From Escherichia coli (lineage in GTDB: Bacteria > Pseudomonadota > Gammaproteobacteria > Enterobacterales > Enterobacteriaceae), in assembly GCA_005388305.1 (NCBI GenBank), contig GCA_005388305.1_4327.1: 27,210 nt of DNA; one strand, given 5' to 3'. A program made the position numbers and the translations under genes. Shown in pieces: positions 2,654-17,458 of the stretch. The notes beneath the pieces are model-generated. The model was not told the origin of the DNA and did no database searches. It worked only from the letters and a program-made list of their open reading frames with translations. Position 1 is the first letter of the stretch. Every line of letters begins with the position of its first letter.

Positions 2654-5608
2654 ATGTCAAGCGGATGCGGTGACGTTTTAAGCCTGGCGGATTTACAAAC
2701 CGCCAAGAAACATCAGATTTTCGAGGCCGAGGTTATCACTGGCAAATCCGGCGGTGTCGCCGGTGGTGCCGATATTGATTACGCGACAAATCGGGTTACT
2801 GGACAGACCCAGAAGACGTTACCTGCCGTGTTGCGTGATGCTGGTTTTAAACTGGCAGATTTTGATTTCACGTCAGGCGGTACACTATCCGCTAACGACC
2901 GAAACACCGCAGTTTTGTGGCCGTCGTCCTCTGGCGGTGACGGGGATTGGTACTATTGGTTGGGTGCTCTGCCAAAAATTATCCCGGCGTCATCTTCTCC
3001 GCAGTCCACCGGTGGCGTGGCAGATGGGGCATGGCAGCCCGTCGGGTCGGTCATACTGCGGCAGCAAATATCTGATGTAAACGGTGCAATTCTGTACCCA
3101 GATTTACATATGGCGCGATGGAAGGACGAATACGACCCACGTGCATGGGGCGCCGTGGGCGACGGTGTAACTGATGATACTCAATCTATTTTTAATGTAT
3201 TAGCGGCTTCTCCCAACAATTGGATTATAGACGGCAGGGGTTTGACTTATAAAGTTTCCCAATTACCTGACATTAGTAAATTTAAGAATGCTGCATTCGT
3301 TTACGAGCGCGTAGCCGGGCAACCGCTTACTTATGTAGCTGATGGCTTCTTTAACAGCTCACTAACTAAGGTGACGGACACCCCGTTCTACAACGCATGG
3401 ACGCAGGATAAAACTTTCGTCTACGACCATGTTATTTACGCCCCGTTTATGGCGGGCGAACGACATGGCGTTCAAAACTTACATGTAGCTTGGGTTCGCT
3501 CTGGTGACGACGGTCAGACTTGGTCAATGCCTGAGTGGTTGACTCCAATCCATGCTGACTATAATGCTAGTGTTTCTACGGACAGAGTTAACTACCACTG
3601 CATGAGCATGGGTACATGCGGCAACCGATTATATGCAGTTATAGAAACCCGCTACTTATCTGATATGCGGATGAAGAAGGCAGAACTTTGGTCACGCCCA
3701 ATGCCGTATTTTAGACACCCAACCGGCGGAATAACTATTAGTTCTGGCTCCACTACTGCTACCATTGTTATAGAAAATCATGGCCTAAAAGCAGGAGATG
3801 CGGTTAACTTCTCTAATACATCGGCAACTGGCGTATCGGGTAATATGACGGTTGCGTCTATAATTAACCGAAATACGTTCACTGTTACGCTCTCAAGCCC
3901 TGCGAGTTCCACCATAAACAATGCGGGGGTTACCTGGAACTTCGCAACGCGATTCTGGGACAGCCCATGGGAAATTACCGAATTGCCGGGGGTGGCATAC
4001 TCCACTAACGCTGATTTGTGTGTCACGGAGACACATAGTTTTGCGGTTATAGATGATGCTAACTACACTATCGCTGTCGGCTATCACAACGGCGATGTGT
4101 CCCCTCGGCGTCTCGGCGTCTTGTATTTTAGTAACGTGTATGACAATCCAGGCGTATTCGTTCGTCGCACTGTCGCTCAGGCATACGCTGATAACGCTTC
4201 TGAGCCGTGCGTGAAAAGTTATGGAGGTGCGCTCTACCTTACCACACGCGGCACATTACCTACTTCCCCTGGCTCTACACTGGCGATGAGCACCGATTCA
4301 GGGCAAAACTGGAGCTACTTGCGATTTCCGAACAATGTACATCACTCCAATCTTCCGTTCGCTAAAGTAGGTGACTATCTCTACATCTTTGGTACAGAAC
4401 GTGCCTTTGGCGAGTGGGAAGGAGGCGAGCCGGACAGCAGCTATGAAGGTTCGTATCCACGGACCTTTATGTGCAAAGTTAATGTGTCGTCATGGCCTTC
4501 ATCTTTAGATGATGTTCAGTGGTTTAATATTACCGACCAAATATACCAGGGCCATATTGTTAACTCTGCTGTCGGCGTCGGCTCTGTCTGTGTTAAAGAT
4601 GGCTGGTTGTACTATATCTTTGGTGGGGAAGACTTCTTCTCTCCCTGGAGCATAGGGGATAACAGTGCGAAGTTATGGTACAAACATGATGGGCATCCGG
4701 CTGACTTATATAGCTACCGGATAAAGATTGAAGACCACCCGTACGTATCACGTGATTTCAAATACGGAGCAACTCCTAACCGTACACTACCTGTCGCAAT
4801 GGGTGTAGATGGTGTCCGTCATGTAGAAGCACCTTTGACGTTTGACAATGATATAAGCGTGTACTCCCTGCGTGTAACGGGGTTGGAATACGATGGCACA
4901 CAACAGTCTGCCGTGCGTGCACGGTTTGATGGTGATTACGGGCTGATTTCAAAAACAGTCCCCACTAAAACCCCATCGGTTCAAAGACTTATTGTTAGCG
5001 GCGGTGACGGCGCATCCCGCTCCGATGGTGCGTTGCTGCAACTGTACGGGGCAAACCATGCAACGCCTAACAGGGCTATTATGTATGCGTCAGGAGGCTT
5101 CTACTCATACAACAATTTCCTTCCTTACTTAGACTCGCGAGTGTCTTTAGGTTCGGCAAGTAATAGGTGGACTACGGTGTACGCGGTCACCGGTACGATA
5201 AACACGTCTGATGGTACACTTAAGACGAACAAAGAGGAAATTGAGGGACAACTCCTTACCGCATGGGAGGATATACATGTAATATCTTTTAAGTGGCTTG
5301 AAAGCCTAGCAATCAAGGGTGACACTGCAAGGATACACTTCGGTGTGATAGCCCAAGATGTGCGAGACATCTTGGTCAACCATGGGCTTATGGAGAAAGA
5401 TTCTACCGATTGTAAATATGCTTTCTTGTGCTACGACTCAATTGAAGCTGCGTATGATATTGATGAAGATGGCCAGACTGTACAAGTATCCCCTCCCGGC
5501 GGCAGATGGGGGGTTAGGGCGGACCAGATGTTCTTCATAGAGATTGCCTATCAGCGTAAGAAGATGCGCGAGTTCGAGAAGAGGCTGGCAGCACTAGAAG
5601 ATAAATAA
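2654..5608 (+). CDS. tailspike: sialidase-like (putative endosialidase, capsule depolymerase) with C-terminal intramolecular chaperone (peptidase S74-type) domain, 984 aa
   Basis: RBS AAGAGGA 7 nt before ATG 2654. Two Asp-box motifs (SxDxGxTW): SGDDGQTW at nt ~3500-3523 and STDSGQNW at nt 4289-4312. C-terminal ~130 aa (…SDGTLKTNKEEIEG…GVIAQDVRDIL…FIEIAYQRKKMREFEKRLAALEDK) has the Ser-x4-Lys dyad and layout of autoproteolytic chaperone domains of endosialidases and T5-type tail fibres. The N-proximal segment GGDGDWYYWLGALPKIIPASSSPQSTGG resembles the corresponding endoNF region as recalled from memory. Confidence 0.75.
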   Translation: MSSGCGDVLSLADLQTAKKHQIFEAEVITGKSGGVAGGADIDYATNRVTGQTQKTLPAVLRDAGFKLADFDFTSGGTLSANDRNTAVLWPSSSGGDGDWYYWLGALPKIIPASSSPQSTGGVADGAWQPVGSVILRQQISDVNGAILYPDLHMARWKDEYDPRAWGAVGDGVTDDTQSIFNVLAASPNNWIIDGRGLTYKVSQLPDISKFKNAAFVYERVAGQPLTYVADGFFNSSLTKVTDTPFYNAWTQDKTFVYDHVIYAPFMAGERHGVQNLHVAWVRSGDDGQTWSMPEWLTPIHADYNASVSTDRVNYHCMSMGTCGNRLYAVIETRYLSDMRMKKAELWSRPMPYFRHPTGGITISSGSTTATIVIENHGLKAGDAVNFSNTSATGVSGNMTVASIINRNTFTVTLSSPASSTINNAGVTWNFATRFWDSPWEITELPGVAYSTNADLCVTETHSFAVIDDANYTIAVGYHNGDVSPRRLGVLYFSNVYDNPGVFVRRTVAQAYADNASEPCVKSYGGALYLTTRGTLPTSPGSTLAMSTDSGQNWSYLRFPNNVHHSNLPFAKVGDYLYIFGTERAFGEWEGGEPDSSYEGSYPRTFMCKVNVSSWPSSLDDVQWFNITDQIYQGHIVNSAVGVGSVCVKDGWLYYIFGGEDFFSPWSIGDNSAKLWYKHDGHPADLYSYRIKIEDHPYVSRDFKYGATPNRTLPVAMGVDGVRHVEAPLTFDNDISVYSLRVTGLEYDGTQQSAVRARFDGDYGLISKTVPTKTPSVQRLIVSGGDGASRSDGALLQLYGANHATPNRAIMYASGGFYSYNNFLPYLDSRVSLGSASNRWTTVYAVTGTINTSDGTLKTNKEEIEGQLLTAWEDIHVISFKWLESLAIKGDTARIHFGVIAQDVRDILVNHGLMEKDSTDCKYAFLCYDSIEAAYDIDEDGQTVQVSPPGGRWGVRADQMFFIEIAYQRKKMREFEKRLAALEDK

Positions 5609-5612
5609 AACT

Positions 5613-5634
5613 AAGGCCCCAAACGGGGCCTTTT
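5613..5634. terminator. bidirectional rho-independent terminator between convergent tailspike and helicase transcription units
   Basis: Hairpin AAGGCCCC-AAAC-GGGGCCTT followed by TTTT on the + strand and preceded by an A-rich tract (T-run on the - strand); lies just after the tailspike stop. Confidence 0.6.
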
Positions 5635-5637
5635 CTC

Positions 5638-5774
5638 TACTCTTCGGATAACTTTTCCAGTACAAACGCCAGTTGCGCATTAGCGGCGTCTCTTTGCTGC
5701 CGTAGTCGCAGAACCTCTTCTTCTAGTTCCTTGATACGTTTTTGCAATGCGGGAATCGGGGCTATGATGTTCAT
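5638..5774 (-). CDS. small coiled-coil protein, 45 aa (below ORF-track cutoff)
   Basis: ATG at 5774-5772 overlaps the helicase TGA stop in an ATGA arrangement, with GAGGT RBS-like sequence upstream. Translation MNIIAPIPALQKRIKELEEEVLRLRQQRDAANAQLAFVLEKLSEE. Ends just before the terminator. Confidence 0.3.
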
Positions 5775-7195
5775 TTCTTACCTCTTCTCTTCATATAATT
5801 AAGCAACTCTTCCTGTACCGATTTCTTCTCGTCCGTACGCGCGGCAACAACCTCGTCAAGAGTGTCTTTAGCGACTATGTGATAAAGGAACACCGGGCGC
5901 TCGTGGCCTGCCTGCTTCTGGCGTACTGGACCTATACGCTCGACGACCTGCAAATAGTGCTCAAGGTTCCAGCCTTGTGAAATGAATGCCAGATGATGCC
6001 CGCCGTCCTGTAAATTCAAACCATGCCCGGCTGACGCGGGATGCACGCACAAAATCTCGATTTCGCCTCGGTTCCACGCCTCCATCTGCTTATTACCCTT
6101 CGCGCCTTTAGAAAATGCCTGCGCCTGTGGGAACCGCTTAAGGATACGCTCAAGTTCGTGCTTAAACTGATAGGCCACAAGTAACGGTGCGCCCTGTAAC
6201 TCCTCGACAATGGACTCGAGCGCATCCAGTTTCGTATCGTGCACTTTCTCCCAGTCTTTCGTTGCCTCACCGTCCGGCCCTGACACATATACGGCGCCGG
6301 ATGCAATCTGCAAACACTTTGACGTCTTCGCTGCGGCGTTAGCCGCTTCTACTTCCCCGCTCTCCAGTTCCGCGAATAACTTCTCCTCCATATCGATGTA
6401 CGCCTGGCGTGCTTTCTTCGGCAGGTCTATTTCAACTGGTACGATAATCGGCGCTTCGCAACCGAACCACTCGGCAGCGTCAATCGTGAGACTAATGTCC
6501 TTCATCTTCTGATGAATCTCGGTATCCGCACCCGGGCGGGCGTGATACTCACGCGCCATCGCCGATTTGCCTTTCTGTACAGAGTTGAACCAGCGGTCGG
6601 TGAACGCAGTGTACGATGAGCCGAGGCGCTCGCCAGCGTCGATAAACCAGTTCTGGCCCCACAGGTCTTTGAGGCCGTTAGGCGACGGTGTGCCCGTCAG
6701 ATTGATGAAACGCTTAACTTTACCGAACGCCACTTTGCTGAGCGCCTTTGCCCGCTTGCTACCACCAGAACGGCTACGGAATGACTTCAGTTTCGTACTC
6801 TCATCTGCAACGATAACCGTAAAAGGCCAGTCGTCTTTGCCGTAGTAGTCAATCAGCCACTCGATAACTTCGTAGTTGGTACACACCACGTTAACATCTG
6901 ACTCCAGCGCCGCGATGCGGCGCTTTTCTGAACCAGTTGCATCGACGACGCTCAGACATGGGAATTGCCATTTCTCTTGTTCTGCGGGCCACGTACCCGA
7001 CGCAACGCGCAGCGGGGCGAGGATTAACACGCGGTCGTCATCATTAAGTTGACCGTTGCGGAACAGTCTGTTTAACGCCCACAGTACGCTGCCAGTCTTC
7101 CCGGCGCCCATGCTCGCCCATATGTTGCAGCGATGGTGCTGCAACATGAACGAAGTCATGAGCTTCTGGTATTCGCGCCTTTGAAACTTACTCAT
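5771..7195 (-). CDS. SNF2-family (superfamily 2) DNA helicase, 474 aa
   Basis: Walker A ASMGAGKTG, motif II VIVADEST, motif III LTGTP, C-terminal motif VI-like QVVERIGPVRQKQAG. Start overlaps the methyltransferase stop by 8 nt. Confidence 0.8.
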   Translation of the reverse strand: MSKFQRREYQKLMTSFMLQHHRCNIWASMGAGKTGSVLWALNRLFRNGQLNDDDRVLILAPLRVASGTWPAEQEKWQFPCLSVVDATGSEKRRIAALESDVNVVCTNYEVIEWLIDYYGKDDWPFTVIVADESTKLKSFRSRSGGSKRAKALSKVAFGKVKRFINLTGTPSPNGLKDLWGQNWFIDAGERLGSSYTAFTDRWFNSVQKGKSAMAREYHARPGADTEIHQKMKDISLTIDAAEWFGCEAPIIVPVEIDLPKKARQAYIDMEEKLFAELESGEVEAANAAAKTSKCLQIASGAVYVSGPDGEATKDWEKVHDTKLDALESIVEELQGAPLLVAYQFKHELERILKRFPQAQAFSKGAKGNKQMEAWNRGEIEILCVHPASAGHGLNLQDGGHHLAFISQGWNLEHYLQVVERIGPVRQKQAGHERPVFLYHIVAKDTLDEVVAARTDEKKSVQEELLNYMKRRGKK

Positions 7196-8111
7196 TTACG
7201 GCCCCCATAAACGCCTTTATAAATTCGGCGGCTACTTGCGGGACGATGGCATTGCCGTAACCGCGCAATCGTCCCACTCTTGCGGGTATCCCATTAGCCA
7301 GCGGGAATGTGCCGGGTTCAACTGGCCTGAATTTTCCATCCCGGCATCCGAGCCAGTCAGCATCTGACCAGTAGCCGTGATGCGGATTGGTTGATTCACC
7401 AAATATTGTGCGTGCGTCGCCAGATTGCAATTCGCATTCGGCCTGTTGAATCTCTTTTCCGCATATGCTTGCGGGTCTTTCGCTCGGCTGTTGTTGTCGT
7501 CTGCAACTGATGGCGCTGGCCATGCAGCTAAATGGCGGGCTTGTCCGGCAAGCGTCTGCAAACCGCGTTTCGTATCTGGTTGCGGATTGGTGTTCGCGGT
7601 CGGCGTGTACCATTCTTTTTGCACCAAAAAAGAGTCGCTCTCTTTTGTGCGGTGCGCCGACGCTACAAGCTGGGAGTACGGCAAACCCGACGGCGTAGTC
7701 TTCTCCTTCCAGGTGAGTTTGTAAATCGCACATCCACGATTTTGCAATTGCTGGCGCAACCTGCTCCCCAAAGAGGACTGGAGGTCGGCACTCGCTGATA
7801 AGGTCGAGGAACACAGGTGCGAGGTGTCTCGGGTCGAACTGTCCGAGTTGCTTTCCCGCCGCGCTAAACGGTTGGCAAGGCGGGCTTCCCGTCCAGAGAG
7901 GCGTATCCTCCGAAACTCCCGCAAGTCTGAGCGCGAGAGGCCAGCCGCCGATACCAGCGAAAAAATGACACTGGGTGAACCCGTCAAGGTCTTCTGGCTT
8001 AACTTCGGTAATGCTTCTTTCATCTACAACTCCAAAAGGTATGTGACCATGTTTTATTAATTCACGCAGCCACGCGGCTGCGCCTTTATCCCATTCGTTG
8101 TAATAGTTCAT
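7188..8111 (-). CDS. DNA (cytosine-5)-methyltransferase, 307 aa
   Basis: Motif I HFFAGIGG (FxGxGG), motif IV GSPPCQPFSAAGK (catalytic PCQ), motif VIII-like PHKRERLFF, motif X-like LRGYGNAIVPQVA. Confidence 0.8.
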   Translation of the reverse strand: MNYYNEWDKGAAAWLRELIKHGHIPFGVVDERSITEVKPEDLDGFTQCHFFAGIGGWPLALRLAGVSEDTPLWTGSPPCQPFSAAGKQLGQFDPRHLAPVFLDLISECRPPVLFGEQVAPAIAKSWMCDLQTHLEGEDYAVGFAVLPACSVGAPHKRERLFFGAKRMVHADREHQSATRYETRFADACRTSPPFSCMASAISCRRQQQPSERPASICGKEIQQAECELQSGDARTIFGESTNPHHGYWSDADWLGCRDGKFRPVEPGTFPLANGIPARVGRLRGYGNAIVPQVAAEFIKAFMGAVNE

Positions 8112-8299
8112 TTCGCCACCAGCACCAGCTCTTTACGCCCGAACGCCGTAACGTTACCCGTTACATCTTCGATAACCAGTTTACCGTTCGACTCGACGAA
8201 CACCGTATCAACGGCAACAGGTTGACGTGTCTTAACGTTGAAAATCATGTCACCCGGTACGATGTCACGTGCTGGTTTGCGGTCGTATTCGTGTTTCAT
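8108..8299 (-). CDS. hypothetical protein, 63 aa
   Basis: ORF overlapping the methyltransferase start by 4 nt (translational coupling); a sigma70-like promoter lies immediately upstream. No recognisable motif. Confidence 0.5.
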   Translation of the reverse strand: MKHEYDRKPARDIVPGDMIFNVKTRQPVAVDTVFVESNGKLVIEDVTGNVTAFGRKELVLVAK

Positions 8300-8329
8300 T
8301 TCTCAATTCCTTATATTGTTGGTGTATGA

Positions 8330-8617
8330 CTAACTATAATAGTTCGCTATTAGGTCGTCAACCTGTTTAAACGAACCAACGACAAAAACATTCGCACCAC
8401 GTTTACGCATACGCTCGTGCTCACGTAACTGGTGTGGGTCTGGCTTCGTGTTTTCGTCTTTCTTAACCTCGACGAACAAGACGATGCCGCCGGGTAGAAT
8501 TACCAGCAGGTCGGGAGCGCCGGAGCGCCCCTCATAGGAAAGTTTACGAACGAGGCCGCCGATAGCCTCGAATCGCTCTTTTGCGTATTTCTGCACGCGC
8601 CCCTCAGGCGTACTCAT
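8330..8617 (-). CDS. VRR-NUC domain nuclease, 95 aa
   Basis: Small PD-(D/E)xK-type protein with GAPDLLV…VEVKK acidic/Lys catalytic pattern typical of VRR-NUC; GGGAGGGG RBS upstream of the ATG at 8617. Confidence 0.7.
   Translation of the reverse strand: MSTPEGRVQKYAKERFEAIGGLVRKLSYEGRSGAPDLLVILPGGIVLFVEVKKDENTKPDPHQLREHERMRKRGANVFVVGSFKQVDDLIANYYS
8333..8361 (-). promoter_or_regulatory. sigma70-like promoter (TTGACG-17-TATAGT on the - strand) inside a copy of the conserved 30-bp element
   Basis: + strand reads AACTATAATAGTTCGCTATTAGGTCGTCAAC; reverse complement gives -35 TTGACG (8361-8356), 17-bp spacer, -10 TATAGT (8338-8333). Overlaps the 3' end of the VRR-NUC CDS and sits ~35 nt upstream of the 63-aa gene. 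Confidence 0.5.
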
Positions 8618-8698
8618 CTATACACCCCTCCCGTTTCGTATGCGCGATACCGCAGCGAGGGCAGATTCGACAGTCTTCTTCATATAACCAGTAAATTT

Positions 8699-8830
8699 TC
8701 ATTCCAGCACCCACAGATAAATTGCGATGAATATACCCAATACGGCAACCATCATGCCGTATTGGCCTTCGCGACAGTAGACACCGGCAGCAAATCCCGT
8801 CAGTACCGCGATAATCAGTTTACTTAGCAT
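8699..8830 (-). CDS. putative small hydrophobic membrane peptide, 43 aa (below ORF-track cutoff)
   Basis: ATG at 8830 overlaps the 3' end of the polymerase gene by 11 nt. Translation MLSKLIIAVLTGFAAGVYCREGQYGMMVAVLGIFIAIYLWVLE has two hydrophobic stretches. No independent support. Confidence 0.2.
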   Translation of the reverse strand: MLSKLIIAVLTGFAAGVYCREGQYGMMVAVLGIFIAIYLWVLE

Positions 8831-11099
8831 AACGGTGCACCTCTTCCCCGGCCCATGTTAGCGGGAATCCTTCAGCCCATTCAGGTAATGAGCATAACAG
8901 GTCACCCATCTCTTTAACCGTGTACTCCGGCGTGTCTGGCGTTTCGGCGACACATTCATCGTGTACGTGGAGTACAATTGGGTAGCCCGCTGCCTCGACC
9001 GTCAGGAGTCCGTTAACCAGTAAATCACGGCACAACGCCTGGATGATGTTTTCACACAATTTTCCGCCGTGTGTGTACAAAGTTGTCCACTGGCGGGTGG
9101 TCTGATTTTCGCCCTGGTATTTAATGCGAACGTTAGTTGTTACGCGCCCGTCCTCGTCAGTCTCTTTAGTGACGCTTAAACCTATACCAGGGTAGGACAT
9201 AATGCGCCCGGACGGCAACTCCACGCACAACCACCAACCCGGCACAAAGTTACCCTGTCTGTCTTTCTCTTTAGTACGCCATATGCGAATAGCTCTGTCG
9301 CCGTTAAGGCGGACTCTGGCCCCCGCCCAAAACTCTCGTCCCGGATTTCTGATTGCGGCAATTACCGAATCCTTAAGGTCGTTCCAGAATTTCACTGTTT
9401 CCGGATGGGCCTCCCGCCACATGCGCTTGATAGCATCGCAGGTGCGCCAGACTTCCTTTGGCAGCACATAGGAGGCCCGTTCGTCTTTTTTACCGGGTTT
9501 TGGGGGTCGCTTAGCCTCCTGAATCCGCGCCCATTCATAACCTCTGGCAGTAGCCGCCCATATATGATCAGGGAATGTCCCCCGCATTGTCTCCGTCATT
9601 TTAAANNNNNNNNNNNNNNNNNNNNNNNNNNNNNNNNNNNNNNNNNNNNNNNNNNNGCCGCCCTCATAGCCGAGGCCAAGCTCGCAACATTTCCCGACCT
9701 GTCGTAGGTCTTTACGGGTGGCTTTCAGTTCTATGGGGTCCATACCAAACATCTTACCAGCTGTGGCGCAATAAATATCAATCCCCGCGCGGAACGTATC
9801 AAGGGCGGACGTCTCCCCCGCCGTCCAGGCTAACCCACGCCCTTCCACGTTCGAGTAGTCGGCAACGAGCAACTTATTGCCTTTTTCCGGGATAATGCAA
9901 CTGCGGACAGTTGAGGCTGTTAGTTTAGATACGTCGAAACGGCGATGCGCCCGACCTTTTAACAGCAAATTGATGCCGAACGATAAGGGGTTAAGCCTGC
10001 GGTTCCAGTCTTCGTCGGACTCCCACGGCTGGCGTACAAGTTTCTTTTCCTCGTTAGTCGGGTCGTCATGGTAGTACCCGCGCGACAGGTTCTGCGGTTG
10101 GAACCCTTTACCCGCAAATCGTAAAGTGCGCTTTGCCCCACCGTACTGGATGCAACCGCGACGGCGTCCGTCTTTGGACCGTCCTAGCAGTAGCGGTTTG
10201 TATTTTGTTGACGCCGTGGAGGCCGCGCCGAGGCGCATCTCAATGATTGTGCGTGCATCGTCCGGTAAGTCGTCGTCCTCTAGCAAGCCTTCGAGCGTTG
10301 CTTTCTGCGCATTATAAATATTGTAGGCCGGTGCCAGTTCCCGGAGGATTGGCAGAAAATCTTTGCCAGTTAGTTTCCCTCCGAATTTCGCGCGGGCCTC
10401 GTTTTTTAGCTCTTGCTTGTGGCGTTCCACTGCCGCTACCGCCGCCTCAGCAAGAGCCGTGTCAACAAAGAAGCCTCGGTCGTTAATTAACTGGTCCAGT
10501 TCCAGTACACGGTCTTCGAACTCGGAGTTACCCCAACGCGGCAACTTATGGAACACTTCACGCATCGCGGTGATGTCGCTAACGGCGTACTTGATGAACA
10601 GCGCCCACTCATCCGGGTGCGTTTCAGCAGTGTAGCGGCGAATTTTGTAGTTCTTCGGCGTCGGTTTAGAGAAACGCTGAATAAGCGCTTTGCCTCGTTT
10701 GTCTTTCGCGTTGTCTGCAGACACGCCAAGCACTTCGCACAATGCGTCGAGTGAACCCGGCAGCGCGTGACGAAACGCCCAAATCATCGTATCAATGGTG
10801 TTGCTTACCGGAATATCAAAGCCCCAGCAGTGTTTCATGATGAGCCTGTCGAACATTGAGCCGTTGTGCCACACCATCTTGATGCGACTGTTTGGCTTAA
10901 CCAGGCGGCGCAGTGCGCGGTGCAAATCTCCCGGCATGTCGCTGCCGTCGGTGCAATCCCATACCTGTACAGGCTCGTCGTCAAAAGCGTATGTGCAGAT
11001 AAGCACTTCGGTAGTTGGATGTTCGGCGTAAGCGTAGGAGCCGACTTTCTTCAAATCGGCTTCGGAGAATGTTTCAAAGTCTAAGAACAGGTAACTCAT
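8820..11099 (-). CDS. family A DNA polymerase with 3'-5' exonuclease domain, 759 aa (interrupted by an assembly gap)
   Basis: Exo I LFLDFETFS, Exo II WHNGSMFDRL, Exo III YAVSDITAM, pol motif A LLVADYSNVEGRGLAW, motif B RKDLRQVGKCCELGLGYEGG, motif C VLHVHDECV. A run of 17 X residues in the translation corresponds to the N run. Confidence 0.9.
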   Translation of the reverse strand: MSYLFLDFETFSEADLKKVGSYAYAEHPTTEVLICTYAFDDEPVQVWDCTDGSDMPGDLHRALRRLVKPNSRIKMVWHNGSMFDRLIMKHCWGFDIPVSNTIDTMIWAFRHALPGSLDALCEVLGVSADNAKDKRGKALIQRFSKPTPKNYKIRRYTAETHPDEWALFIKYAVSDITAMREVFHKLPRWGNSEFEDRVLELDQLINDRGFFVDTALAEAAVAAVERHKQELKNEARAKFGGKLTGKDFLPILRELAPAYNIYNAQKATLEGLLEDDDLPDDARTIIEMRLGAASTASTKYKPLLLGRSKDGRRRGCIQYGGAKRTLRFAGKGFQPQNLSRGYYHDDPTNEEKKLVRQPWESDEDWNRRLNPLSFGINLLLKGRAHRRFDVSKLTASTVRSCIIPEKGNKLLVADYSNVEGRGLAWTAGETSALDTFRAGIDIYCATAGKMFGMDPIELKATRKDLRQVGKCCELGLGYEGGXXXXXXXXXXXXXXXXXFKMTETMRGTFPDHIWAATARGYEWARIQEAKRPPKPGKKDERASYVLPKEVWRTCDAIKRMWREAHPETVKFWNDLKDSVIAAIRNPGREFWAGARVRLNGDRAIRIWRTKEKDRQGNFVPGWWLCVELPSGRIMSYPGIGLSVTKETDEDGRVTTNVRIKYQGENQTTRQWTTLYTHGGKLCENIIQALCRDLLVNGLLTVEAAGYPIVLHVHDECVAETPDTPEYTVKEMGDLLCSLPEWAEGFPLTWAGEEVHRYAK
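9606..9656. other. assembly gap (51 consecutive N) inside the DNA polymerase gene
   Basis: Directly visible run of n characters; its length is a multiple of 3 so the frame is formally preserved, but the true length and sequence are unknown. Confidence 0.95.
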
Positions 11100-11119
11100 T
11101 ATTTTCGACCCTTAGTAAA

Positions 11120-11139
11120 AAGGCCCAATGAAGGGCCTT
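11120..11139 (-). terminator. intra-operon hairpin (putative partial terminator/attenuator) between the SSB-like gene and the polymerase
   Basis: AAGGCCC-AATGAA-GGGCCTT stem-loop in the 60-nt gap between the two genes; same stem sequence as the terminators at 5613 and 26948; only a short T-run follows on the - strand. Confidence 0.35.
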
Positions 11140-11158
11140 AGTTAAATTGATTCAGATA

Positions 11159-11785
11159 TTAGCGGCGACGACGCTCGCGGCGCGGTGCTTCATCTTCTTC
11201 GTCGTCTTCCAGGTCGTTGACGCTTGCAGCGACTTTAGAACCACCGAACGCTTTACCTTCGCCTACGTATTTAATCGCCAGCAGGTTAACCCCGAGAACT
11301 TTATATTTCTGGCTGAACCAGATTTCGACGCTTACGTTAGCGACGCAGCCGCTGTAAACCTGTTCACCTTCAATCTGTTCGCCGTCTACATTGAAGTCCT
11401 GTTCTACCTGAGTCTCGCCTTTTTTAGAGGTTACAATCAGTGGCTGTTTCTGTGCCTTCGCCTTGAAGTAGAAGCCTTCCGGGAAGTCTTCAAACGGATT
11501 GTCGCGCTCGGCAATGTCTTTAATCGCACATTTATCCATGTGCTTACCTTCGCCATAGTTGGACTTCATCCACTTCTCAGCGGCAGCTGCGCCCAACGCT
11601 TCTTCAACCACAGCGTAAACGGTGTCGTAGAGCGCGTCGATTTGTGCGTGGTCAGACGGCAGGATGATAGTCGCGCTGTACTGGCCTTTAGTGATTGAGC
11701 CATCATCGTTTTCACGGTCTTTTTCGCGTTCGAATACGTTAACCCATGCAGTGTTTACTTTACGCAGATTCAGTTTAATACCCAT
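11159..11785 (-). CDS. putative single-stranded DNA-binding protein (DUF2815-like), 208 aa
   Basis: Sits between the DUF2800 nuclease and the DNA polymerase, which is the conserved DUF2800-DUF2815-PolA gene order in phage replication modules; highly charged C-terminal tail (DLEDDEEDEAPRRERRRR); its own strong promoter immediately upstream. Confidence 0.45.
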   Translation of the reverse strand: MGIKLNLRKVNTAWVNVFEREKDRENDDGSITKGQYSATIILPSDHAQIDALYDTVYAVVEEALGAAAAEKWMKSNYGEGKHMDKCAIKDIAERDNPFEDFPEGFYFKAKAQKQPLIVTSKKGETQVEQDFNVDGEQIEGEQVYSGCVANVSVEIWFSQKYKVLGVNLLAIKYVGEGKAFGGSKVAASVNDLEDDEEDEAPRRERRRR

Positions 11786-11838
11786 CGTGATTTCTCGCTT
11801 TTCAGTTTACTCCGGGAACTGCCCGGCCAGTGATTAGA

Positions 11839-11867
11839 ACTATAATAGCTAACTATTCAGGTGTCAA
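11839..11867 (-). promoter_or_regulatory. sigma70-like promoter (TTGACA-17-TATAGT on the - strand) inside a copy of the conserved 30-bp element
   Basis: + strand GAACTATAATAGCTAACTATTCAGGTGTCAACAC; - strand -35 TTGACA (11867-11862), 17-bp spacer, -10 TATAGT (11844-11839); ~50 nt upstream of the SSB-like ATG. Confidence 0.55.
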
Positions 11868-11871
11868 CACT

Positions 11872-13122
11872 TTATTCCAAATCTTCTTCACTAACCTGAT
11901 TCCACTCAGGACGTTTGTCGTCTGCCGTTGCGACACATGGTGCGCCTGGCTTACGGGTAATAAACGGCTCAAGCGCCGCCATCTCATCCGCAGAAAGAAC
12001 TTTTGCTGCCTCCGTAGGGGACATCAATACCTCTTTTTTGAGAATGTCGCCGTGTGACACTTCAATCGCATCGGCATCTTTCCACGCACGATTACCCGGG
12101 CGGCCTTCTACCAGTTTGTACCCTGGCACTTTCTTACCGGAATGCAATGTGGCGGACATCGCTTTCTCAACCTTGTCGATGTGCTGGCGTAACAGCGGCA
12201 ACTTCTCATACTCAACTACGAGTTGCTCCGTCGTCAGTTCCAGCACAAAGTCGTCTTCAAGTTCTTCCGCCAGTACAGAATTAACCGTCTTTGTACGCGC
12301 GGCACACTGTTCAGAGAACCGGCACCACTGGCAACCATCGACCGACGGCCTGAAGTCAGACGCTTTCAGGTTCTTTTTACCACGGAAATACGCATCAAGA
12401 GCTAACAGTGCACGTTTCTGCGCAAACTTAGCGAACAGTTCCAGACCTTCAACCGAGATGTCCCACTCCGACGCACCGCCAGCATACGGCTGGAATATTA
12501 CCAGGCGAACAACAGTGATGTTATATCGTCTCTTGAGTCGGCGATAAACACCGAGAGCATAAAGCATAAGCTGCTTGTTTTCTTTCGCTTCGACGCGATG
12601 CCGTCCAGTTTTAAGGTCGCCAATAATGAGCATGTGCTCGTCGGTGTTCGCCAGTTCCTGAACGGCAACAATGTCGGCGGTTCCGAATGTCTCAACGCCT
12701 TCGTAGCCTGGATGCAATACCTCACTAAGATTGACACGCATCTCGAGTTTGGCGTAAGTCGCTACATCGATAACAGCTTTGCAGTGGTCGGTGTACTTGC
12801 GCACCTGCTCAATCATGTCAGCCGTAATCAGTACCGCGCCTTTCATCGGGCTGATTAGCGCCTTAATCTGGCCTTTACCCTCATCCAGCACGTAAGCACC
12901 TACTTCGCGCCCTAACGGCAACGCAGTGCCTTTGATGTACTGGTTTAAGTGCATCTCAGCTATGGTGTGCATAGCCGTTCCTAATACGGCGGCTTTACCT
13001 GACGTGTTAGGAATATCTTTTTCACAGGCCAGTGATGCACTGCACGCCAGCCACTTTTTAGCACCAGACGGCGACAGCAGGGCGTGTACGTCATTATTGC
13101 CACCACGTTCTTTTAGTTTCAT
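11872..13122 (-). CDS. PD-(D/E)xK exonuclease, DUF2800 / Cas4-RecB-like, probably with Fe-S cluster, ~416 aa
   Basis: N-terminal HALLSPSGAKKWLACSASLAC, nuclease core GTADIVAV…IIGDLKTG, C-terminal cysteine cluster CQWCRFSEQC (one N-terminal plus three C-terminal Cys, as in Cas4/AddB Fe-S nucleases). Start set at ATG 13122 (MKLKERGG…) because it forms an ATGA overlap with the upstream small ORF; the ORF-track start is 13143. Confidence 0.75.
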   Translation of the reverse strand: MKLKERGGNNDVHALLSPSGAKKWLACSASLACEKDIPNTSGKAAVLGTAMHTIAEMHLNQYIKGTALPLGREVGAYVLDEGKGQIKALISPMKGAVLITADMIEQVRKYTDHCKAVIDVATYAKLEMRVNLSEVLHPGYEGVETFGTADIVAVQELANTDEHMLIIGDLKTGRHRVEAKENKQLMLYALGVYRRLKRRYNITVVRLVIFQPYAGGASEWDISVEGLELFAKFAQKRALLALDAYFRGKKNLKASDFRPSVDGCQWCRFSEQCAARTKTVNSVLAEELEDDFVLELTTEQLVVEYEKLPLLRQHIDKVEKAMSATLHSGKKVPGYKLVEGRPGNRAWKDADAIEVSHGDILKKEVLMSPTEAAKVLSADEMAALEPFITRKPGAPCVATADDKRPEWNQVSEEDLE

Positions 13123-13277
13123 GCTCTTAACCCCACACCCCATTTAGCTTTACGCGTTTTACGTTTGCAGGCGCACGTGTCGCCACTACGGTTGAAGATG
13201 ACCAGCCAAGTTGAGTTACTCACTCGAAAAGGCTGGTGACGTCTAACAAATAGAAGTCGCGCTTTACGGTTCGTCAT
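13119..13277 (-). CDS. small basic protein, 52 aa (below ORF-track cutoff)
   Basis: ATG 13277-13275 overlaps the TGA of the 90-aa gene (ATGA), and its own TGA overlaps the ATG at 13122 of the nuclease (ATGA). Translation MTNRKARLLFVRRHQPFRVSNSTWLVIFNRSGDTCACKRKTRKAKWGVGLRA. Confidence 0.3.
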   Translation of the reverse strand: MTNRKARLLFVRRHQPFRVSNSTWLVIFNRSGDTCACKRKTRKAKWGVGLRA

Positions 13278-13546
13278 ACCCTGACCTCCCACTGGTCGAT
13301 TAAATGCCGCGTCTTATGGTCGCAATGCATAGCCCAGCTATACATCGACTCGAAGACATAAAAGTCACTTTTAACGAAAGTCGTGCGCTTAATCTGCGAC
13401 AGGTGACGGCCTATATCTTTCGGCTTCGGTATTTTTCCAAGGTAGGCCATCTCTTCCATCTGGTGTGCACCGGACGGCGCACGCAATAACCATAGCGCCT
13501 CTGTGTTATCCCGCCTGTCAACGGCGCGGTATAGTTGGTAAATCAT
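13274..13546 (-). CDS. hypothetical protein, 90 aa
   Basis: ORF with GAGGG RBS-like sequence upstream of ATG 13546; part of the leftward operon; no recognisable motif. Confidence 0.5.
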   Translation of the reverse strand: MIYQLYRAVDRRDNTEALWLLRAPSGAHQMEEMAYLGKIPKPKDIGRHLSQIKRTTFVKSDFYVFESMYSWAMHCDHKTRHLIDQWEVRV

Positions 13547-13566
13547 AATCCCGACCCTCAGTTAAA

Positions 13567-13582
13567 GCGGCCCGAAGGCCGC
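13567..13582 (-). other. GC-rich hairpin between the acidic-protein gene and the 90-aa gene
   Basis: GCGGCC-CGAA-GGCCGC stem-loop in the 43-nt intergenic gap; possible attenuator or RNA-stability element. Confidence 0.3.
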
Positions 13583-13589
13583 GGGATAG

Positions 13590-14111
13590 TTATTCTTCTT
13601 CGAAATACTTGTTCTTGATTGCTGTCAGGCGCTCCAGATACTCAGCCAGGTCTTCGTCTTTAATCGCTGCAATCTTCATCTTCTTACCGGTGAACTCTTC
13701 CAGCAGTTCGTCAGAATCGTCGCACGCGGCCTCGCTTGGGCCTTCGTTAATCGCATCGTCGATAGCCTGAATCTGGTCGCGCAGAGACTGGTAATCGACT
13801 TCTTCTTTCTCTTCTTCCGGCTCTGGCGTTGGTTCCTCTACTTTGTCCTTACGCGGCTTGCGCTTCGGCTTCTCTTCTTCTGCGGGTTTAGCGTCAACGG
13901 TGTCTTCACCTTCTACCGGGATTTCTTTCGCCTTCTCGACTTCTTCAAGTGCTTTAGCCAGCTCTTTTTTAACTGTTTCTACCCCCGTGACCGCGACGTC
14001 AACAGTCAATTCACCTACAGATTTGCTAGTCGGTTGTTTCACACTGTTTGCAGCAATCAGTTCGTGGGCGACTACGAAACGTTCCAGTAATACTAAGAAT
14101 TTCTCTAACAT
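13590..14111 (-). CDS. highly acidic hypothetical protein, 173 aa
   Basis: First gene downstream of the promoter at 14143-14171; GAGAGGAGA RBS; extremely D/E-rich with one Lys/Arg patch (KPKRKPRKDK). Confidence 0.6.
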   Translation of the reverse strand: MLEKFLVLLERFVVAHELIAANSVKQPTSKSVGELTVDVAVTGVETVKKELAKALEEVEKAKEIPVEGEDTVDAKPAEEEKPKRKPRKDKVEEPTPEPEEEKEEVDYQSLRDQIQAIDDAINEGPSEAACDDSDELLEEFTGKKMKIAAIKDEDLAEYLERLTAIKNKYFEEE

Positions 14112-14142
14112 TATTTATTCTCCTCTCGTTTGGTATGGGCTA

Positions 14143-14171
14143 ACTATAATAGTGAACTATTCACTTGTCAA
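14143..14171 (-). promoter_or_regulatory. sigma70-like promoter (TTGACA-17-TATAGT on the - strand) inside a copy of the conserved 30-bp element, in a divergent intergenic region
   Basis: + strand TAACTATAATAGTGAACTATTCACTTGTCAATGG; - strand -35 TTGACA (14171-14166), 17-bp spacer, -10 TATAGT (14148-14143). A second partial copy of the element (GGTACTATTCACATATCAA, 14197-14215) lies just before the rightward XRE gene. Confidence 0.55.
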
Positions 14172-14235
14172 TGGGCTTTTCTAAAATAATTAATATGGTA
14201 CTATTCACATATCAACTGACTAAGGAGTAATTGAC

Positions 14236-14451
14236 ATGCAACCATCTGAACTAGGCATCCGTGTAGAACAGCGCCGTAAAGAACTCAGTATTTCCCAGCG
14301 CCGTCTGGCTGTCCTGACCGGCGTTTCCCAGGGTGCAATTAACCAGCTTGCACTCGGGGTAACGCGGGACGTCCGCCCAGCAACGCTGTTTAAACTGGCG
14401 GAAGTGCTAGAGGTAGACGCCAAGTGGCTGGCGTTCGGTGAAGGGGCTTAA
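14236..14451 (+). CDS. XRE-family helix-turn-helix transcriptional regulator (Cro/CI-like), 71 aa
   Basis: HTH signature QRRLAVLTGVSQGAINQLALG; AAGGAG RBS before ATG 14236; followed immediately by a terminator; the only rightward gene inside the leftward operon. Confidence 0.8.
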   Translation: MQPSELGIRVEQRRKELSISQRRLAVLTGVSQGAINQLALGVTRDVRPATLFKLAEVLEVDAKWLAFGEGA

Positions 14452-14467
14452 CGCCCCTTTCTTTTTA
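14441..14467. terminator. rho-independent terminator after the XRE gene (between convergent genes)
   Basis: AAGGGGC-TTAAC-GCCCCTT hairpin containing the XRE stop codon, followed by TCTTTTTATT. Confidence 0.55.
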
Positions 14468-14662
14468 TTGCACCTTTATCGGGTATCTTTTGCGAAACTT
14501 ACCTAACCCGCAGTATACGCTGTAAGCCTCTGTGTAACTGTACACAACATGATACCCGCGCCCGTAAGGAACTACGTTAAGAACTTCCACTACTTCGCCT
14601 CTGTGGTTGGTGCATTTATTACCTTTAAGTTCGTCGCTTACTTCTTTAAATTTACCGCTCAT
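14465..14662 (-). CDS. hypothetical protein, 65 aa
   Basis: ATG at 14662 forms an ATGA overlap with the primase-helicase stop (14659-14661); no recognisable motif. Confidence 0.45.
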   Translation of the reverse strand: MSGKFKEVSDELKGNKCTNHRGEVVEVLNVVPYGRGYHVVYSYTEAYSVYCGLGKFRKRYPIKVQ

Positions 14663-16926
14663 TCCAAATCCTCCTCTGTCACTGTCAGCATCTCATTCGG
14701 TTCATATATTGTCTTCGGAATCTTGTTATCAGTTATCCGGGTGTTCAGCCTGTAACGGCAAGGGATTATCTGATTGTTTTCGTCAGTCCCCGGAACAAGA
14801 TACCCAGCCTCAACCATTTTCTTAATCTTCCCGCGTTCTATGGCTTCTTTGGAGTTAAACGCCTTTGCATTGGGGTCAGACTGTGCGAGCTTATTAGCGG
14901 CGGCGACTGTGATGCCTTCGTTGCCGTTGTAGGTTCCTTCCGCCAGTTCAAACGCCGCCAGTATCGTGGCTTCCGAACTGTTGACGGCGTTCTCCATGGT
15001 TCTACGTACGTTTTCTTTACCTTCCTTAGTCAGTCCTTCTTCCCGCTCTTTCTCCTCGTCAGTCTTGAACGGCTCGAAACCCCACGGCATTAACACAAGT
15101 GCCTTATGCGGCTCCGGCAGGTCGAGGTTTACGATTGTGCCGTATTCCTCCGTGCTACCGAGGAACTCAACCGCACGGTACTCTTTCGGCGGCGGCGCTT
15201 CACGGAACTGTACAGACTCCAGCACCATACCAACCGTCTTCTGTTGAGGCCCGTGCTTGAATTTCGAGTGGTATACATTTATCTGGCGGTCGGTAGCTCG
15301 TTCGATTGTCAGTTCCACGTCGACGCCAGCATACAGCGCCCCACTGCCACGGGCTTTCTTTCCGCCCTTCGGCGTATGGTGGACAACGCCTACCGCAGCT
15401 TTAGTCGCGTCACGTACTTCTTTCAGGATGGCGATAACCTTACCCATGCCGATTGCCGTTGATGAACTGTTCTCGTCGAACTTATCAATCGTCAGGGCTA
15501 GCGTCTGGTTGAGGGTGTCGAACGCAACCATGCCGATGGGTTCGTCACCCGCAGTTTCACGCATCAACTTAATCAGGCTTTTCAGTTTTCCGACTTCGCC
15601 CATGTCGATGACATGTACATAATCTTTACCTTCCTCGCCATATTTAGCCGCGAGCGCATCGATACGGGTGCGGGTAGCTGCGCCGCCTTCACCGTCGATA
15701 TAGAAATGGTGGCAACGCTGCGTATCTGCCCCCGCAAACCGGTATCCGGCGGCGCTCAGGTACGCCATCCCCAGCGTATAGAACGATTTGTACGTGCCGG
15801 ATTCCCCGACAATATCCCAGATACAATCTGACGGCATGTACCCTTCAACGACGAAATCCGCCTTTACCGGTTCCGGTAACTCGTCATCCTCTGAGTCCTC
15901 GTCATCTTCCAGGTCGTCGAGGCTGCATGAAACAGATTCACGTGCACCCCATCCGATGGCCTCTGCGACTTCACTGAACGGCAGCCCCGTCGCATCGCAC
16001 GCATACTTCCACACCTCTTTCGGTGACATGCCTTCGGTCGCCGTAATGTCGGTGTCGTGAATCATTGTTACGTTCGGCGCCTCATATCCCTCTCGCGGGA
16101 AGCACAGCAGGAAGTCATCCGGGCGCGGCGTCGGGTCGCTGTAGTTTTCTGCGTGTTCTGGCGTAGCTGGCATCTTAAGGCCTCGTGGCGTCATGATACC
16201 GCCATACTCGAACGCCAGTGCCTCGAACGCGTCGGTAAACGCGGTGCGCAGTTCTTCCGGTATCTGGTAATCCGATGCGCTGCTAACGTCAACGGCGGGG
16301 ATGCCTTCCAGTAACTCGTCCGGGTCAATCAGGTCGTTGCGGCGTGACCAGATAACGGTAGAGCCAACCGGAGGCAGGTACATCGGTTGCGAAAGAGTGA
16401 ACCCGCTGCGGTCAGCACCCATGCTTTTGAAGAAGTGTTCCAGCAATCCATGGCGAACACGGATGATGTCACCACCTTCGACCGGACGGGCCAGCGGCAT
16501 GACGACGCGAAAGCGCGGGGACTCGTCGGTATGTGATGCCGTGGTATAGAGGCACATGGCCTGGCGGCTACGCTTAACCAGGCGTACAGCTTCCTGATAC
16601 TCTTCCGGCGTTGCACTGTCGAAGTCCAGATACGCCAGCGACGATTTGCTTACAGACGCATCACAGCGATAGAAGAAACCCTTACGCGCTTGCTTAAAGT
16701 CGCCGGTTTTCGGGTCTTTTACAGTGCTGTGCGTCGAGTCGCACGCGGCGGTGATATAACCGGGCGCGGTCTTCGGGTTAATTCCGTCACGGACAGCATC
16801 AAGCGGCTGGATTAACTCTTTCAGGTCGTCCAGTGTTGCCGTGTGTGTGGTTCTGACGTTTATATCCTTTTTCTCTGCCCGCGCGTTGCGACGTGACCAC
16901 GAGTAGGATAAAATTACATCGGACAT
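14659..16926 (-). CDS. replicative primase-helicase (N-terminal primase-polymerase-like region plus C-terminal RecA/RepA-like AAA_25 ATPase), 755 aa
   Basis: Walker A GESGTYKS, Walker B MVAFDTL, VVHHTPKGG motif typical of RepA-like ATPases; N-terminal half has an acidic LAYLDFD motif reminiscent of prim-pol catalytic sites. Confidence 0.75.
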   Translation of the reverse strand: MSDVILSYSWSRRNARAEKKDINVRTTHTATLDDLKELIQPLDAVRDGINPKTAPGYITAACDSTHSTVKDPKTGDFKQARKGFFYRCDASVSKSSLAYLDFDSATPEEYQEAVRLVKRSRQAMCLYTTASHTDESPRFRVVMPLARPVEGGDIIRVRHGLLEHFFKSMGADRSGFTLSQPMYLPPVGSTVIWSRRNDLIDPDELLEGIPAVDVSSASDYQIPEELRTAFTDAFEALAFEYGGIMTPRGLKMPATPEHAENYSDPTPRPDDFLLCFPREGYEAPNVTMIHDTDITATEGMSPKEVWKYACDATGLPFSEVAEAIGWGARESVSCSLDDLEDDEDSEDDELPEPVKADFVVEGYMPSDCIWDIVGESGTYKSFYTLGMAYLSAAGYRFAGADTQRCHHFYIDGEGGAATRTRIDALAAKYGEEGKDYVHVIDMGEVGKLKSLIKLMRETAGDEPIGMVAFDTLNQTLALTIDKFDENSSSTAIGMGKVIAILKEVRDATKAAVGVVHHTPKGGKKARGSGALYAGVDVELTIERATDRQINVYHSKFKHGPQQKTVGMVLESVQFREAPPPKEYRAVEFLGSTEEYGTIVNLDLPEPHKALVLMPWGFEPFKTDEEKEREEGLTKEGKENVRRTMENAVNSSEATILAAFELAEGTYNGNEGITVAAANKLAQSDPNAKAFNSKEAIERGKIKKMVEAGYLVPGTDENNQIIPCRYRLNTRITDNKIPKTIYEPNEMLTVTEEDLE

Positions 16927-16984
16927 GTTGTATTTCCTTCAGCAAGTAATTTGGCCTCGGCGTTCACCGCGTCGGGGCTTTCTT

Positions 16985-17260
16985 TTATTCCAGGTCGCGG
17001 GAGATATTACCCTCGGGCACCAACACTTTTCCAATACTTCTCGCTTTCTCTGTAATCGGCGTTGCTCTTTTTGCCCGATAAAACTTTCCTTTATTAAGAA
17101 CCTCTCCGTGTTGCTCGAGAACATCCAAAGCATGTTTAATCGGATTTACACCGTAATTATCTAACCGGTATCTCCGAAGCCCGTCTACCGTAAAAGCGCC
17201 GTTCGCCTCGGTCAGTCTGCGTGCACACATTAATATGTGTTTCTGGAATTTAGTTAGCAT
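16985..17260 (-). CDS. hypothetical protein, 91 aa
   Basis: ORF overlapping the upstream HTH gene by 11 nt; second gene of the leftward operon; no confident motif. Confidence 0.5.
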   Translation of the reverse strand: MLTKFQKHILMCARRLTEANGAFTVDGLRRYRLDNYGVNPIKHALDVLEQHGEVLNKGKFYRAKRATPITEKARSIGKVLVPEGNISRDLE

Positions 17261-17429
17261 CTTTCACGTTCTCCTTAATCCACGCCTCCACGGTAGCTCG
17301 GTCAAACGTACCTGGCTGCCGGTAGCCGTTAATAACACGACAACACTCCGGGAACTTACCGGACCGAAGCCAGCGATTAAGAGTCATAGGGGAAACTCCG
17401 ATTAAGTCTGCTACTTCTTTCTGTGTCAT
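17250..17429 (-). CDS. AlpA/excisionase-like helix-turn-helix DNA-binding protein, ~59 aa
   Basis: MTQKEVADLIGVSPMTLNRWLRSGKFP is a typical HTH_17/AlpA-type motif. Start set at the internal ATG 17429 (AGAGGG RBS 7 nt upstream); the ORF-track start 17459 would lie inside the putative promoter. Confidence 0.6.
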   Translation of the reverse strand: MTQKEVADLIGVSPMTLNRWLRSGKFPECCRVINGYRQPGTFDRATVEAWIKENVKDAN

Positions 17430-17458
17430 TTTACGCACCCTCTTTACCAAGTGAAACA

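Follow-up and report, generated by a model that had tools for sequence, protein, structure and literature searches.

A C5-cytosine methyltransferase gene with a conserved nested reading frame, probably a two-chain enzyme of the M.EcoHK31I type, in the replication module of a K1-specific Kagunavirus

The stretch of DNA considered here, 27,210 nucleotides from Escherichia coli assembly GCA_005388305.1 (contig GCA_005388305.1_4327.1; the window in what follows), carries at 5771-17459 a block of phage genes in which the gene for a C5-cytosine methyltransferase (MTase) runs into that for an SNF2-family helicase. The block is a standard early and middle module for replication and recombination, already known, and belongs to a K1-specific Kagunavirus (Guernseyvirinae); its one unusual feature is a conserved open reading frame (ORF) nested within the MTase gene. 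With a probability of roughly 0.7, this phage MTase is an orphan two-polypeptide enzyme of the M.EcoHK31I type, whose large chain (alpha) would be read from frame A and whose small chain (beta) from frame B, the +1 frame of the same nucleotides. A first-pass annotation, made from the letters of the window, had described a single canonical C5-MTase with FxGxGG and PCQ motifs; the enzyme class and both motifs are borne out (FAGIGGW and PPCQ), but the one-chain description gives way to a nested architecture with, very probably, two polypeptides.

Frame B lies wholly within the MTase ORF (Table 1). Relatives of the MTase were compared across 65 viral loci, and in every full-length locus of this set, at frame A identities of 41-97%, the +1 frame runs without a stop for 203-453 codons and is similar to B by tblastn. 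The same arrangement is found in epsilon15, in Rhodobacter phage RcPacific (Casjensviridae), in Seunavirus NINP13076 and in Komagataeibacter phage phiKX1, and the nested ORF is open in 49 of the 49 full-length homologous loci examined (45 + 4). Synonymous codons were then permuted within frame A such that protein and codon usage were kept, with 200 shuffles for each of 45 full-length loci. The longest +1 ORF after shuffling averaged about 78-171 codons as against 203-329 observed, and the observed length was reached by none of the 200 shuffles in 38 of the 45 loci and by a single one in each of the other seven, with the +2 frame holding roughly the number of stops expected. Under these shuffles about 5.9 stops are expected in B (1.5, 1.6, 0.8, 0.7 and 1.2 in its successive fifths) and under the reciprocal, B-synonymous shuffles about 8.6 in A (1.6-2.1 per fifth); none is observed in either. 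Both frames are stop-free even where their own protein is poorly conserved, a pattern that favours two complete translated products over a frameshift hybrid.

The start signals suggest that beta is separately initiated. A GGAG lies 6 nt ahead of the ATG at 8023, which is the first ATG in B after a stop, and a Shine-Dalgarno (SD) motif (GGAG or AGGAG) stands 5-14 nt before the first ATG of B in 14 of 26 distinct contexts compared with 12% of control ATGs (p=3e-7). The position of the start shifts among lineages (nt 62, 71, 77, 83, 89 or 107, counted in the A gene), and an SD-like motif accompanies most of the newer positions. Variability by codon position is A-dominant, with frame A the constrained frame, over codons 1-120, 141-160 and 281-307 and B-dominant over codons 121-140 and 261-270, and codons 161-240 are hypervariable; some 260 codons may be under selection in two frames simultaneously. 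All seven +1-frame stops of the MTase gene are packed into the short flanks of the nested ORF, 29 codons ahead of it (8024-8111) and 14 codons behind it (7188-7231), a density far above the gene average that may sharpen the boundaries of beta or be due to chance. Gene callers and the Prokaryotic Genome Annotation Pipeline (PGAP) mostly annotate frame A alone. In the GenBank record of phage K1ind2 both ORFs are entered, as 'C-specific methylase' and, for beta, as 'putative Mte8-like protein', Mte8 being what we take to be a Swiss-Prot-style name for the M.EcoHK31I methylase. No description of the nested ORF and no mention of EcoHK31I was found in the phage literature searched.

The conserved motifs of a C5-MTase are divided between the two frames. 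Frame A has motifs I (FAGIGGW), IV (PPCQ), VI (GEQV), VIII (HKRERLFF) and X (GNAIVPQVA) and aligns to M.HhaI at motif I and at motifs IV-VIII. Its C-terminus holds an invariant GNAI(V)P..AA (G286, N287, A288, I289) whose counterpart in E. coli Dcm is motif X, by a statistically weak alignment with a score that 20 of 300 shuffles reach. As a single chain, frame A falls short of a canonical monomeric C5-MTase covering the whole profile in standard order: PF00145 matches aa 73-167 only, corresponding to profile positions 65-163 of 324, and TIGR00675, whose cut-off is 100.65 bits, gives a score of 40.4, its alignment beginning at profile position 25. The middle of the chain (aa 165-245) resembles a hydrophilic linker with 5-13% column identity; the conserved residues of this region lie solely in frame B, and the LADT/VADS that recurs in frame A is a shadow of the frame B motif WPTP. 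The N-terminus appears from these alignments to be permuted in motif order. Within aa 1-61 (7975-8111, minus strand), the stretch YYNEWD..A at aa 3-12 falls on motif II of M.HhaI and G.VD.RSI on the motif III region, and both precede FAGIGGW, which PPCQ follows after only about 20 aa. The alignments to the TIGR00675, DruM and MTase_II models are colinear and start at profile position ~25-33, past motif I.

Frame B begins with a basic stretch (pI 11.5) in which conservation is poor and disorder is predicted over the first 74 residues. This is followed by a conserved helix and hairpin (LQSSL.SRL...GS.LY.LTWK...TP.GR....L.AS.RRT), a WPTP...D motif that occurs twice, and a C-terminal part of high conservation (RLTASG.MLTGS.AGM.SGGQLNPAHSRWLMG.P.EWDDC). 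Its conserved motifs include a motif IX-like QLNPAHSRWLMGYPQEW. When aligned locally, the B segment QLNPAHSRWLMGY falls best on Dcm motif IX, RLTPRECARLMGF, a score reached by 70 of 300 shuffles, and B residues 212-250 fall on the end of the target-recognition domain (TRD) and motif IX of M.HhaI, entered by hand, where 2 of 300 shuffles score as high. At 7271-7321 (minus strand) frame A reads VEPGTFPLANGIP and frame B reads LNPAHSRWLMGYP from the same nucleotides, and each fits x-P-(x4-5)-L-x-x-G-(I/Y)-P because CCC(G) and GGG runs give Pro and Gly in either frame.

Two-polypeptide C5-MTases have been described as exceptions (PMC3404938). In M.EcoHK31I, beta is encoded entirely within the alpha gene in another reading frame, alpha comprises motifs I-VIII and X together with the predicted TRD, beta supplies motif IX, and activity needs both chains (PMC2836561, PMC3404938). 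Removal of the first ~41-42 residues of beta weakens its association with alpha and leaves in-vitro activity nearly gone, and larger deletions abolish it (PMC2836561, PMC3404938). The likeness of the window to this enzyme is one of published architecture, the sequences of the two M.EcoHK31I chains themselves lying outside the comparison. As in M.EcoHK31I (YGGCCR, from E. coli HK31), the gene of the small chain lies inside that of the large chain in another frame and carries its own apparent initiation site, and motifs I, IV-VIII and X are in frame A; the candidate motif IX of frame B would complete the same split. The partly dispensable N-terminus of M.EcoHK31I beta has its parallel in the poorly conserved, predicted disordered N-terminus of beta in the window. 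The two differ in that M.EcoHK31I is part of a restriction-modification system, whereas the MTase of the window is an orphan in a lytic phage. M.AquI (CYCGRG) is likewise a heterodimeric C5-MTase of two separately translated polypeptides, but its chains are consecutive halves (motifs I-VIII and IX-X), with no nesting and no return of motif X to the large chain (PMC3404938).

On this two-chain reading, ribosomes arriving from the coupled 63-aa ORF would translate alpha (307 aa), which would contribute the S-adenosylmethionine-binding and catalytic motifs, and independent initiation at 8023 would yield the basic beta chain (263 aa), which would bring the motif IX segment and probably some of the surface that recognises DNA. 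Once associated, the chains would C5-methylate replicating phage DNA, and progeny DNA so methylated would be shielded from restriction in the next host. Translation of both chains, their association, activity and target, and the anti-restriction role are all inferred from sequence and by analogy. No endonuclease gene adjoins the MTase among the ORFs of the window or in the annotation of phage K1G, which makes anti-restriction self-methylation the most plausible role, as had been proposed; general roles of orphan MTases of mobile elements have been reviewed (PMC12707154). A modification coupled to replication had been proposed as well. Expression of PolA and of the two genes annotated as methylases peaks late in the related phage vB_Eco_K1B4 (PMC12645636), and late-class MTase transcription fits a strictly replication-coupled, early role poorly.

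This late peak is one of several points that weigh against the two-chain enzyme as set out here. The assignment of motif IX to B draws on analogy and on a local alignment that is short and statistically weak; a profile of B gave no significant match to Dcm by hhalign and found nothing in the PDB. The AlphaFold2 model of B has a mean predicted local distance difference test score (pLDDT) of 54.7 and is confident only for the helix 76-95 and the hairpin 101-123, and that of A, built with 43 close homologues, is unusable (mean pLDDT 36.6). In M.EcoHK31I the TRD is placed in alpha, whereas in the window the middle of alpha is unconserved and the WPTP motifs are in the frame of beta. Finally, that beta is translated and binds alpha is itself deduced from the letters of the gene.

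The alternative that survives best, unlikely as it is, takes beta as a real and functionally independent overprinted protein, for instance a basic DNA-binding or anti-defence factor, and frame A as a self-sufficient monomeric MTase. Such a reading would accommodate the presence in frame A of motifs I, IV-VIII and X together with a weak motif IX-like stretch of its own (RPVEPGTFPLANGIP), as well as the basic (pI 9.9) and mostly predicted disordered nature of B, which has no match in Pfam, NCBIfam, PADLOC or the PDB and whose counterparts in some other phages are joined in frame to a domain of Endonuclease VII, HNH, Dam or DUF2800. It is harder to reconcile with the best-conserved, C-terminal segment of B, whose statistically weak alignments fall on motif IX in Dcm and M.HhaI and place it correctly relative to motif X, or with an unconserved middle of A, which is unexpected for a self-sufficient TRD, and the sole experimentally studied gene of such an architecture needs both chains (PMC2836561).

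A single canonical MTase could also be assembled by programmed frameshifting, the ribosome reading A up to motif VIII, moving by +1 into B for TRD and motif IX and returning to A for motif X. The canonical order I-VIII / WPTP-TRD-IX / X does arise only when A, B and A are read in turn, but two shifts would be required, and this route is very improbable in view of the SD motif and ATG that B has for itself, renewed when the start moves. The model also does not require the first ~95 codons of B and the middle of A to be free of stops, as they are (~3.1 and ~3.8 expected under shuffling), and a single-frame version is seen in none of 10 long B-family proteins, of which none has PF00145.

The overlap of the MTase gene with the helicase gene had been noted in the first-pass annotation, which inferred co-expression and saw a resemblance to the defence island system associated with restriction-modification (DISARM). 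The 8-nt overlap is real, the MTase stop and the helicase start sharing ATGAGTAA, and co-expression in this phage is reasonable since the 63-aa ORF, the MTase and the helicase are chained by overlaps of 4 and 8 nt behind a promoter-like site. The pairing is not, however, meaningful across lineages. The overlap is kept in 12 of the 12 Kagunavirus-like loci that have the pair (11 with MTases of 72-77% identity, and locus L015 at 69%), but three other loci (L009, L020, L021) have the SNF2 gene upstream of the MTase and two (L013, L014) have it after the MTase without overlap, and in about 28 more distant loci no homologue of SNF2, VRR-NUC or the 63-aa protein was found within 3 kb of the MTase. 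Elsewhere in the block, too, genes commonly overlap, by 4 to 11 nt. Judged from these loci, the pairing is a lineage-specific compaction of the operon and no functional unit, given that the overlap is limited to Kagunavirus-like loci and that elsewhere the order differs or the SNF2 gene is missing.

A functional DISARM-like or anti-DISARM modification-helicase pair is accordingly even less probable than frameshifting. DISARM and the window have in common an SNF2-family ATPase adjoining a DNA methyltransferase, and beside the conserved overlap there are weak matches to DISARM models. The helicase scores 31.6 bits with the DrmD model, whose curated cut-off is 950, and the MTase about 25 bits with DrmMII; the ZorD and DpdE models score as high on the helicase as DrmD or higher, and what is detected is therefore a generic SNF2 core. 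None of DrmA, DrmB (DUF1998) or DrmC (phospholipase D, PLD) was found among the proteins of the block scanned by profile, so that the set of DrmA, DrmB and DrmC with family-level DrmD and DrmM is not present there. Adjacency, moreover, is not kept outside Kagunavirus-like phages, and among the Kagunavirus loci the helicase is 92-99% identical as against 69-78% and a mosaic pattern for the MTase, which indicates that the two evolve independently. The resemblance noted earlier comes down to generic shared domains. Membership in DISARM, Druantia or Zorya was ruled out on PADLOC and NCBIfam scores.

Least credible of all is that composition or chance produced the nested ORF and that it codes for nothing, a view to which the annotation of frame A alone and the Ser-, Arg- and Leu-rich N-terminal third of B, which resembles out-of-frame sequence, might lend themselves, but which is effectively refuted by the shuffle tests and sits ill with the persistence of the frame across unrelated phage families, the enrichment of SD motifs and the presence of frame-B-specific invariant residues.

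Outside its central segment the MTase gene (nt 1-495 and 741-921) shares 95-98% identity with other Kagunavirus loci. The central segment (nt 496-740) is unrelated to those loci; its larger part, nt 591-740, is 96% identical to L009, which belongs to a different lineage with a different gene order. The central cassette is accordingly unlike every version in the K1 phages and partly matches another lineage. This pattern looks like an exchange of specificity modules and would fit diversifying anti-restriction pressure; the cassette, swapped between phages, probably sets the target sequence. The target-recognition determinants may lie in its beta frame, with the alpha frame there only a read-through linker.

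In a whole-library search, 5,698 clusters at 50% identity matched beta at E<=1e-10, with members in Guernseyvirinae, epsilon15, Casjensviridae, Seunavirus and phages of Burkholderia, Xanthomonas and Klebsiella. The nested-beta architecture is known but under-annotated, and apparently far commoner in phages than the literature implies. A stronger claim, that C5-MTases of this type form a very large, ancient and mainly phage-borne family as opposed to the rare exception of the literature, is offered tentatively, the odds being somewhat against it. In some relatives the beta-frame ORF extends past the end of the alpha gene and is fused in frame to Endonuclease VII (L027:3068-4429, plus strand), Dam (P0138), HNH (P0264) or a DUF2800 nuclease (P0169), which are either real fusion proteins or read-through ORF calls. 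In phiKX1 (L070:1098-2747, plus strand) the alpha-frame ORF is 549 aa long, and about 400 nt downstream the C-terminal motif X region occurs a second time; its annotation has the beta frame only as a fragment of a hypothetical protein and leaves the MTase frame unannotated.

For annotation, the helicase-methylase overlap is of little import, being ordinary operon packing in a known module, and what calls for correction is the methylase, which very probably has two chains, the second hidden in the +1 frame. PGAP-style annotation omits the beta chain in most phage and plasmid records, and the expression, deletion or retargeting of such phage methylases would require that both frames be considered. 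This bears on the prediction of phage host range against restriction systems and on engineered therapeutic K1 phages. Among tailed phages the family would also rank with the longest same-strand regions that are well supported as dual-coding, and it provides a natural test bed for the co-evolution of two proteins in one stretch of DNA.

As regards the block as a whole, the region 5771-17459 matched 508 phage records when used as a nucleotide query, with Escherichia phage K1G (Kagunavirus, Guernseyvirinae) at the top (93.4% nucleotide identity, 90% of 11,689 nt aligned) and K1H and K1ind1-3 next (92-93%); the K1 phages align over 87-90% of the block. Gene order in K1G is collinear, from the helicase-primase through small ORFs, exonuclease, DUF2815 (single-stranded DNA-binding protein, SSB), DNA polymerase, Holliday junction resolvase and a small ORF to two overlapping 'DNA methyltransferase' coding sequences (ORF31 and ORF30) and a DNA helicase. 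By identity and by collinearity with K1G and K1H the block belongs to the Kagunavirus/Guernseyvirinae replication module, and it is not new. The window differs from the K1 phages in its MTase protein, which is 72-78% identical to theirs as against 92-99% for the helicase. PolA has 759 aa here and 726 aa in K1G, and the small ORF28 that follows the helicase gene in K1G has no counterpart of at least 50 aa in the window.

Table 1. Features of the block and its borders, with the evidence for each (E values from Pfam and PHROG profile searches of the block's proteins unless another source is named).
Feature	Position	Strand	Evidence and remarks
HTH_17 / excisionase-like DNA-binding regulator, 69 aa from TTG	17250-17459	-	PF12728 E=4.8e-9; phrog_66 E=1.8e-11
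Conserved phage protein, 91 aa, no assigned function	16985-17260	-	phrog_5169 E=5e-37; ORF41 in K1G
Replicative helicase-primase (AAA_25)	14659-16926	-	PF13481 E=5e-18; phrog_3228 E=3.7e-287, full length
Conserved ORF, 65 aa, 4-nt overlap with helicase-primase gene	14465-14662	-	phrog_36357 E=1e-47
Terminator-like hairpin after the plus-strand Xre/Cro-type gene	14440-14460		sequence scan
Xre/Cro-type helix-turn-helix (HTH) regulator	14236-14451	+	PF01381 E=1.2e-11; tblastn, 495 phage records
Promoter-like site just upstream of acidic-protein gene	14171->14143		TTGACA-17-TATAGT, 11/12 consensus
Acidic protein, 173 aa, pI 4.5, no assigned function	13590-14111	-	phrog_3127 E=7.5e-68
Conserved ORF, 90 aa	13274-13546	-	phrog_4965 E=3e-42
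DUF2800 / PD-(D/E)XK exonuclease	11872-13143	-	PF10926 E=6e-67; PF12705 E=4e-9
Promoter-like site upstream of SSB gene	11867->11839		TTGACA-17-TATAGT, 11/12 consensus
Enc34 / gp2.5-type single-stranded DNA-binding protein	11159-11785	-	PF10991 E=7e-16; phrog_112
PolA, family A DNA polymerase with 3'-5' exonuclease domain	8820-11099	-	PF00476, PF01612; phrog_17 E=9e-124
Candidate sigma-70-like promoter ahead of 63-aa ORF, MTase and SNF2 genes	8333-8361	-	TTGACG-17-TATAGT, 10/12; consensus match only
VRR-NUC nuclease / Holliday junction resolvase-like	8330-8617	-	phrog_93 E=5.7e-33; phrog_5702
ORF of 63 aa, stop overlapping MTase start by 4 nt (ATGA)	8108-8299	-	phrog_4879 E=1.3e-46
C5-cytosine MTase, large polypeptide (frame A, putative alpha, 307 aa)	7188-8111	-	PF00145 E=1.7e-16; phrog_363 full length
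Nested ORF (frame B, putative beta, 263 aa, pI 9.9)	7232-8023	-	phrog_1008 E=2.9e-51; ORF30 in K1G
Hypervariable MTase cassette (gene nt 496-740)	7372-7616	-	identity profile across loci
SNF2-family helicase, 474 aa, core ATPase lobes only	5771-7195	-	PF00176 E=1e-12; phrog_62 E=3.6e-168
Terminator-like hairpin ending the leftward genes, convergent with endosialidase tailspike gene	5613-5632	-	8-bp stem, 6 GC pairs, T tract

The ten genes listed in the first-pass annotation are all present on the minus strand where it had placed them, and the profile searches back their identities. Its list was incomplete, as three conserved minus-strand ORFs (of 65, 90 and 91 aa) and the nested +1 ORF had been missed. 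The regulator called AlpA-like is a real HTH_17 gene, but the ATG at 17429 assigned as its start is internal to an ORF that begins with a TTG at 17459. The exonuclease carries the Cas4-like Cys pattern (Cys34/40 and C271-x2-C274-x5-C280), and PF08774 scores 21.3 bits on the VRR-NUC protein, under its cut-off of 23.8. The PolA gene contains a masked run of 51 N (9606-9656) that translates to 17 X residues.

The ten genes do run leftward, but the picture of a one-strand module is broken by the conserved Xre/Cro-type HTH gene, which is encoded on the plus strand midway along the block and is flanked by promoter-like and terminator-like sites. This gene is found in 495 Guernseyvirinae-type records, several of which label it CRO or HTH, and is unannotated in K1G. 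At least three strong internal sigma-70-like sites, each a consensus match only, stand upstream of the acidic-protein, SSB and 63-aa-ORF genes; the block is therefore not obviously one operon and probably comprises several transcription units. On its left it is flanked, as in the K1 phages, by an endosialidase tailspike gene (2654-5608, plus strand), which is complete, with End_N_terminal, End_beta_propel, End_beta_barrel, End_tail_spike and Peptidase_S74 (C-terminal intramolecular chaperone) domains, and which therefore marks the phage as specific for the K1 capsule.

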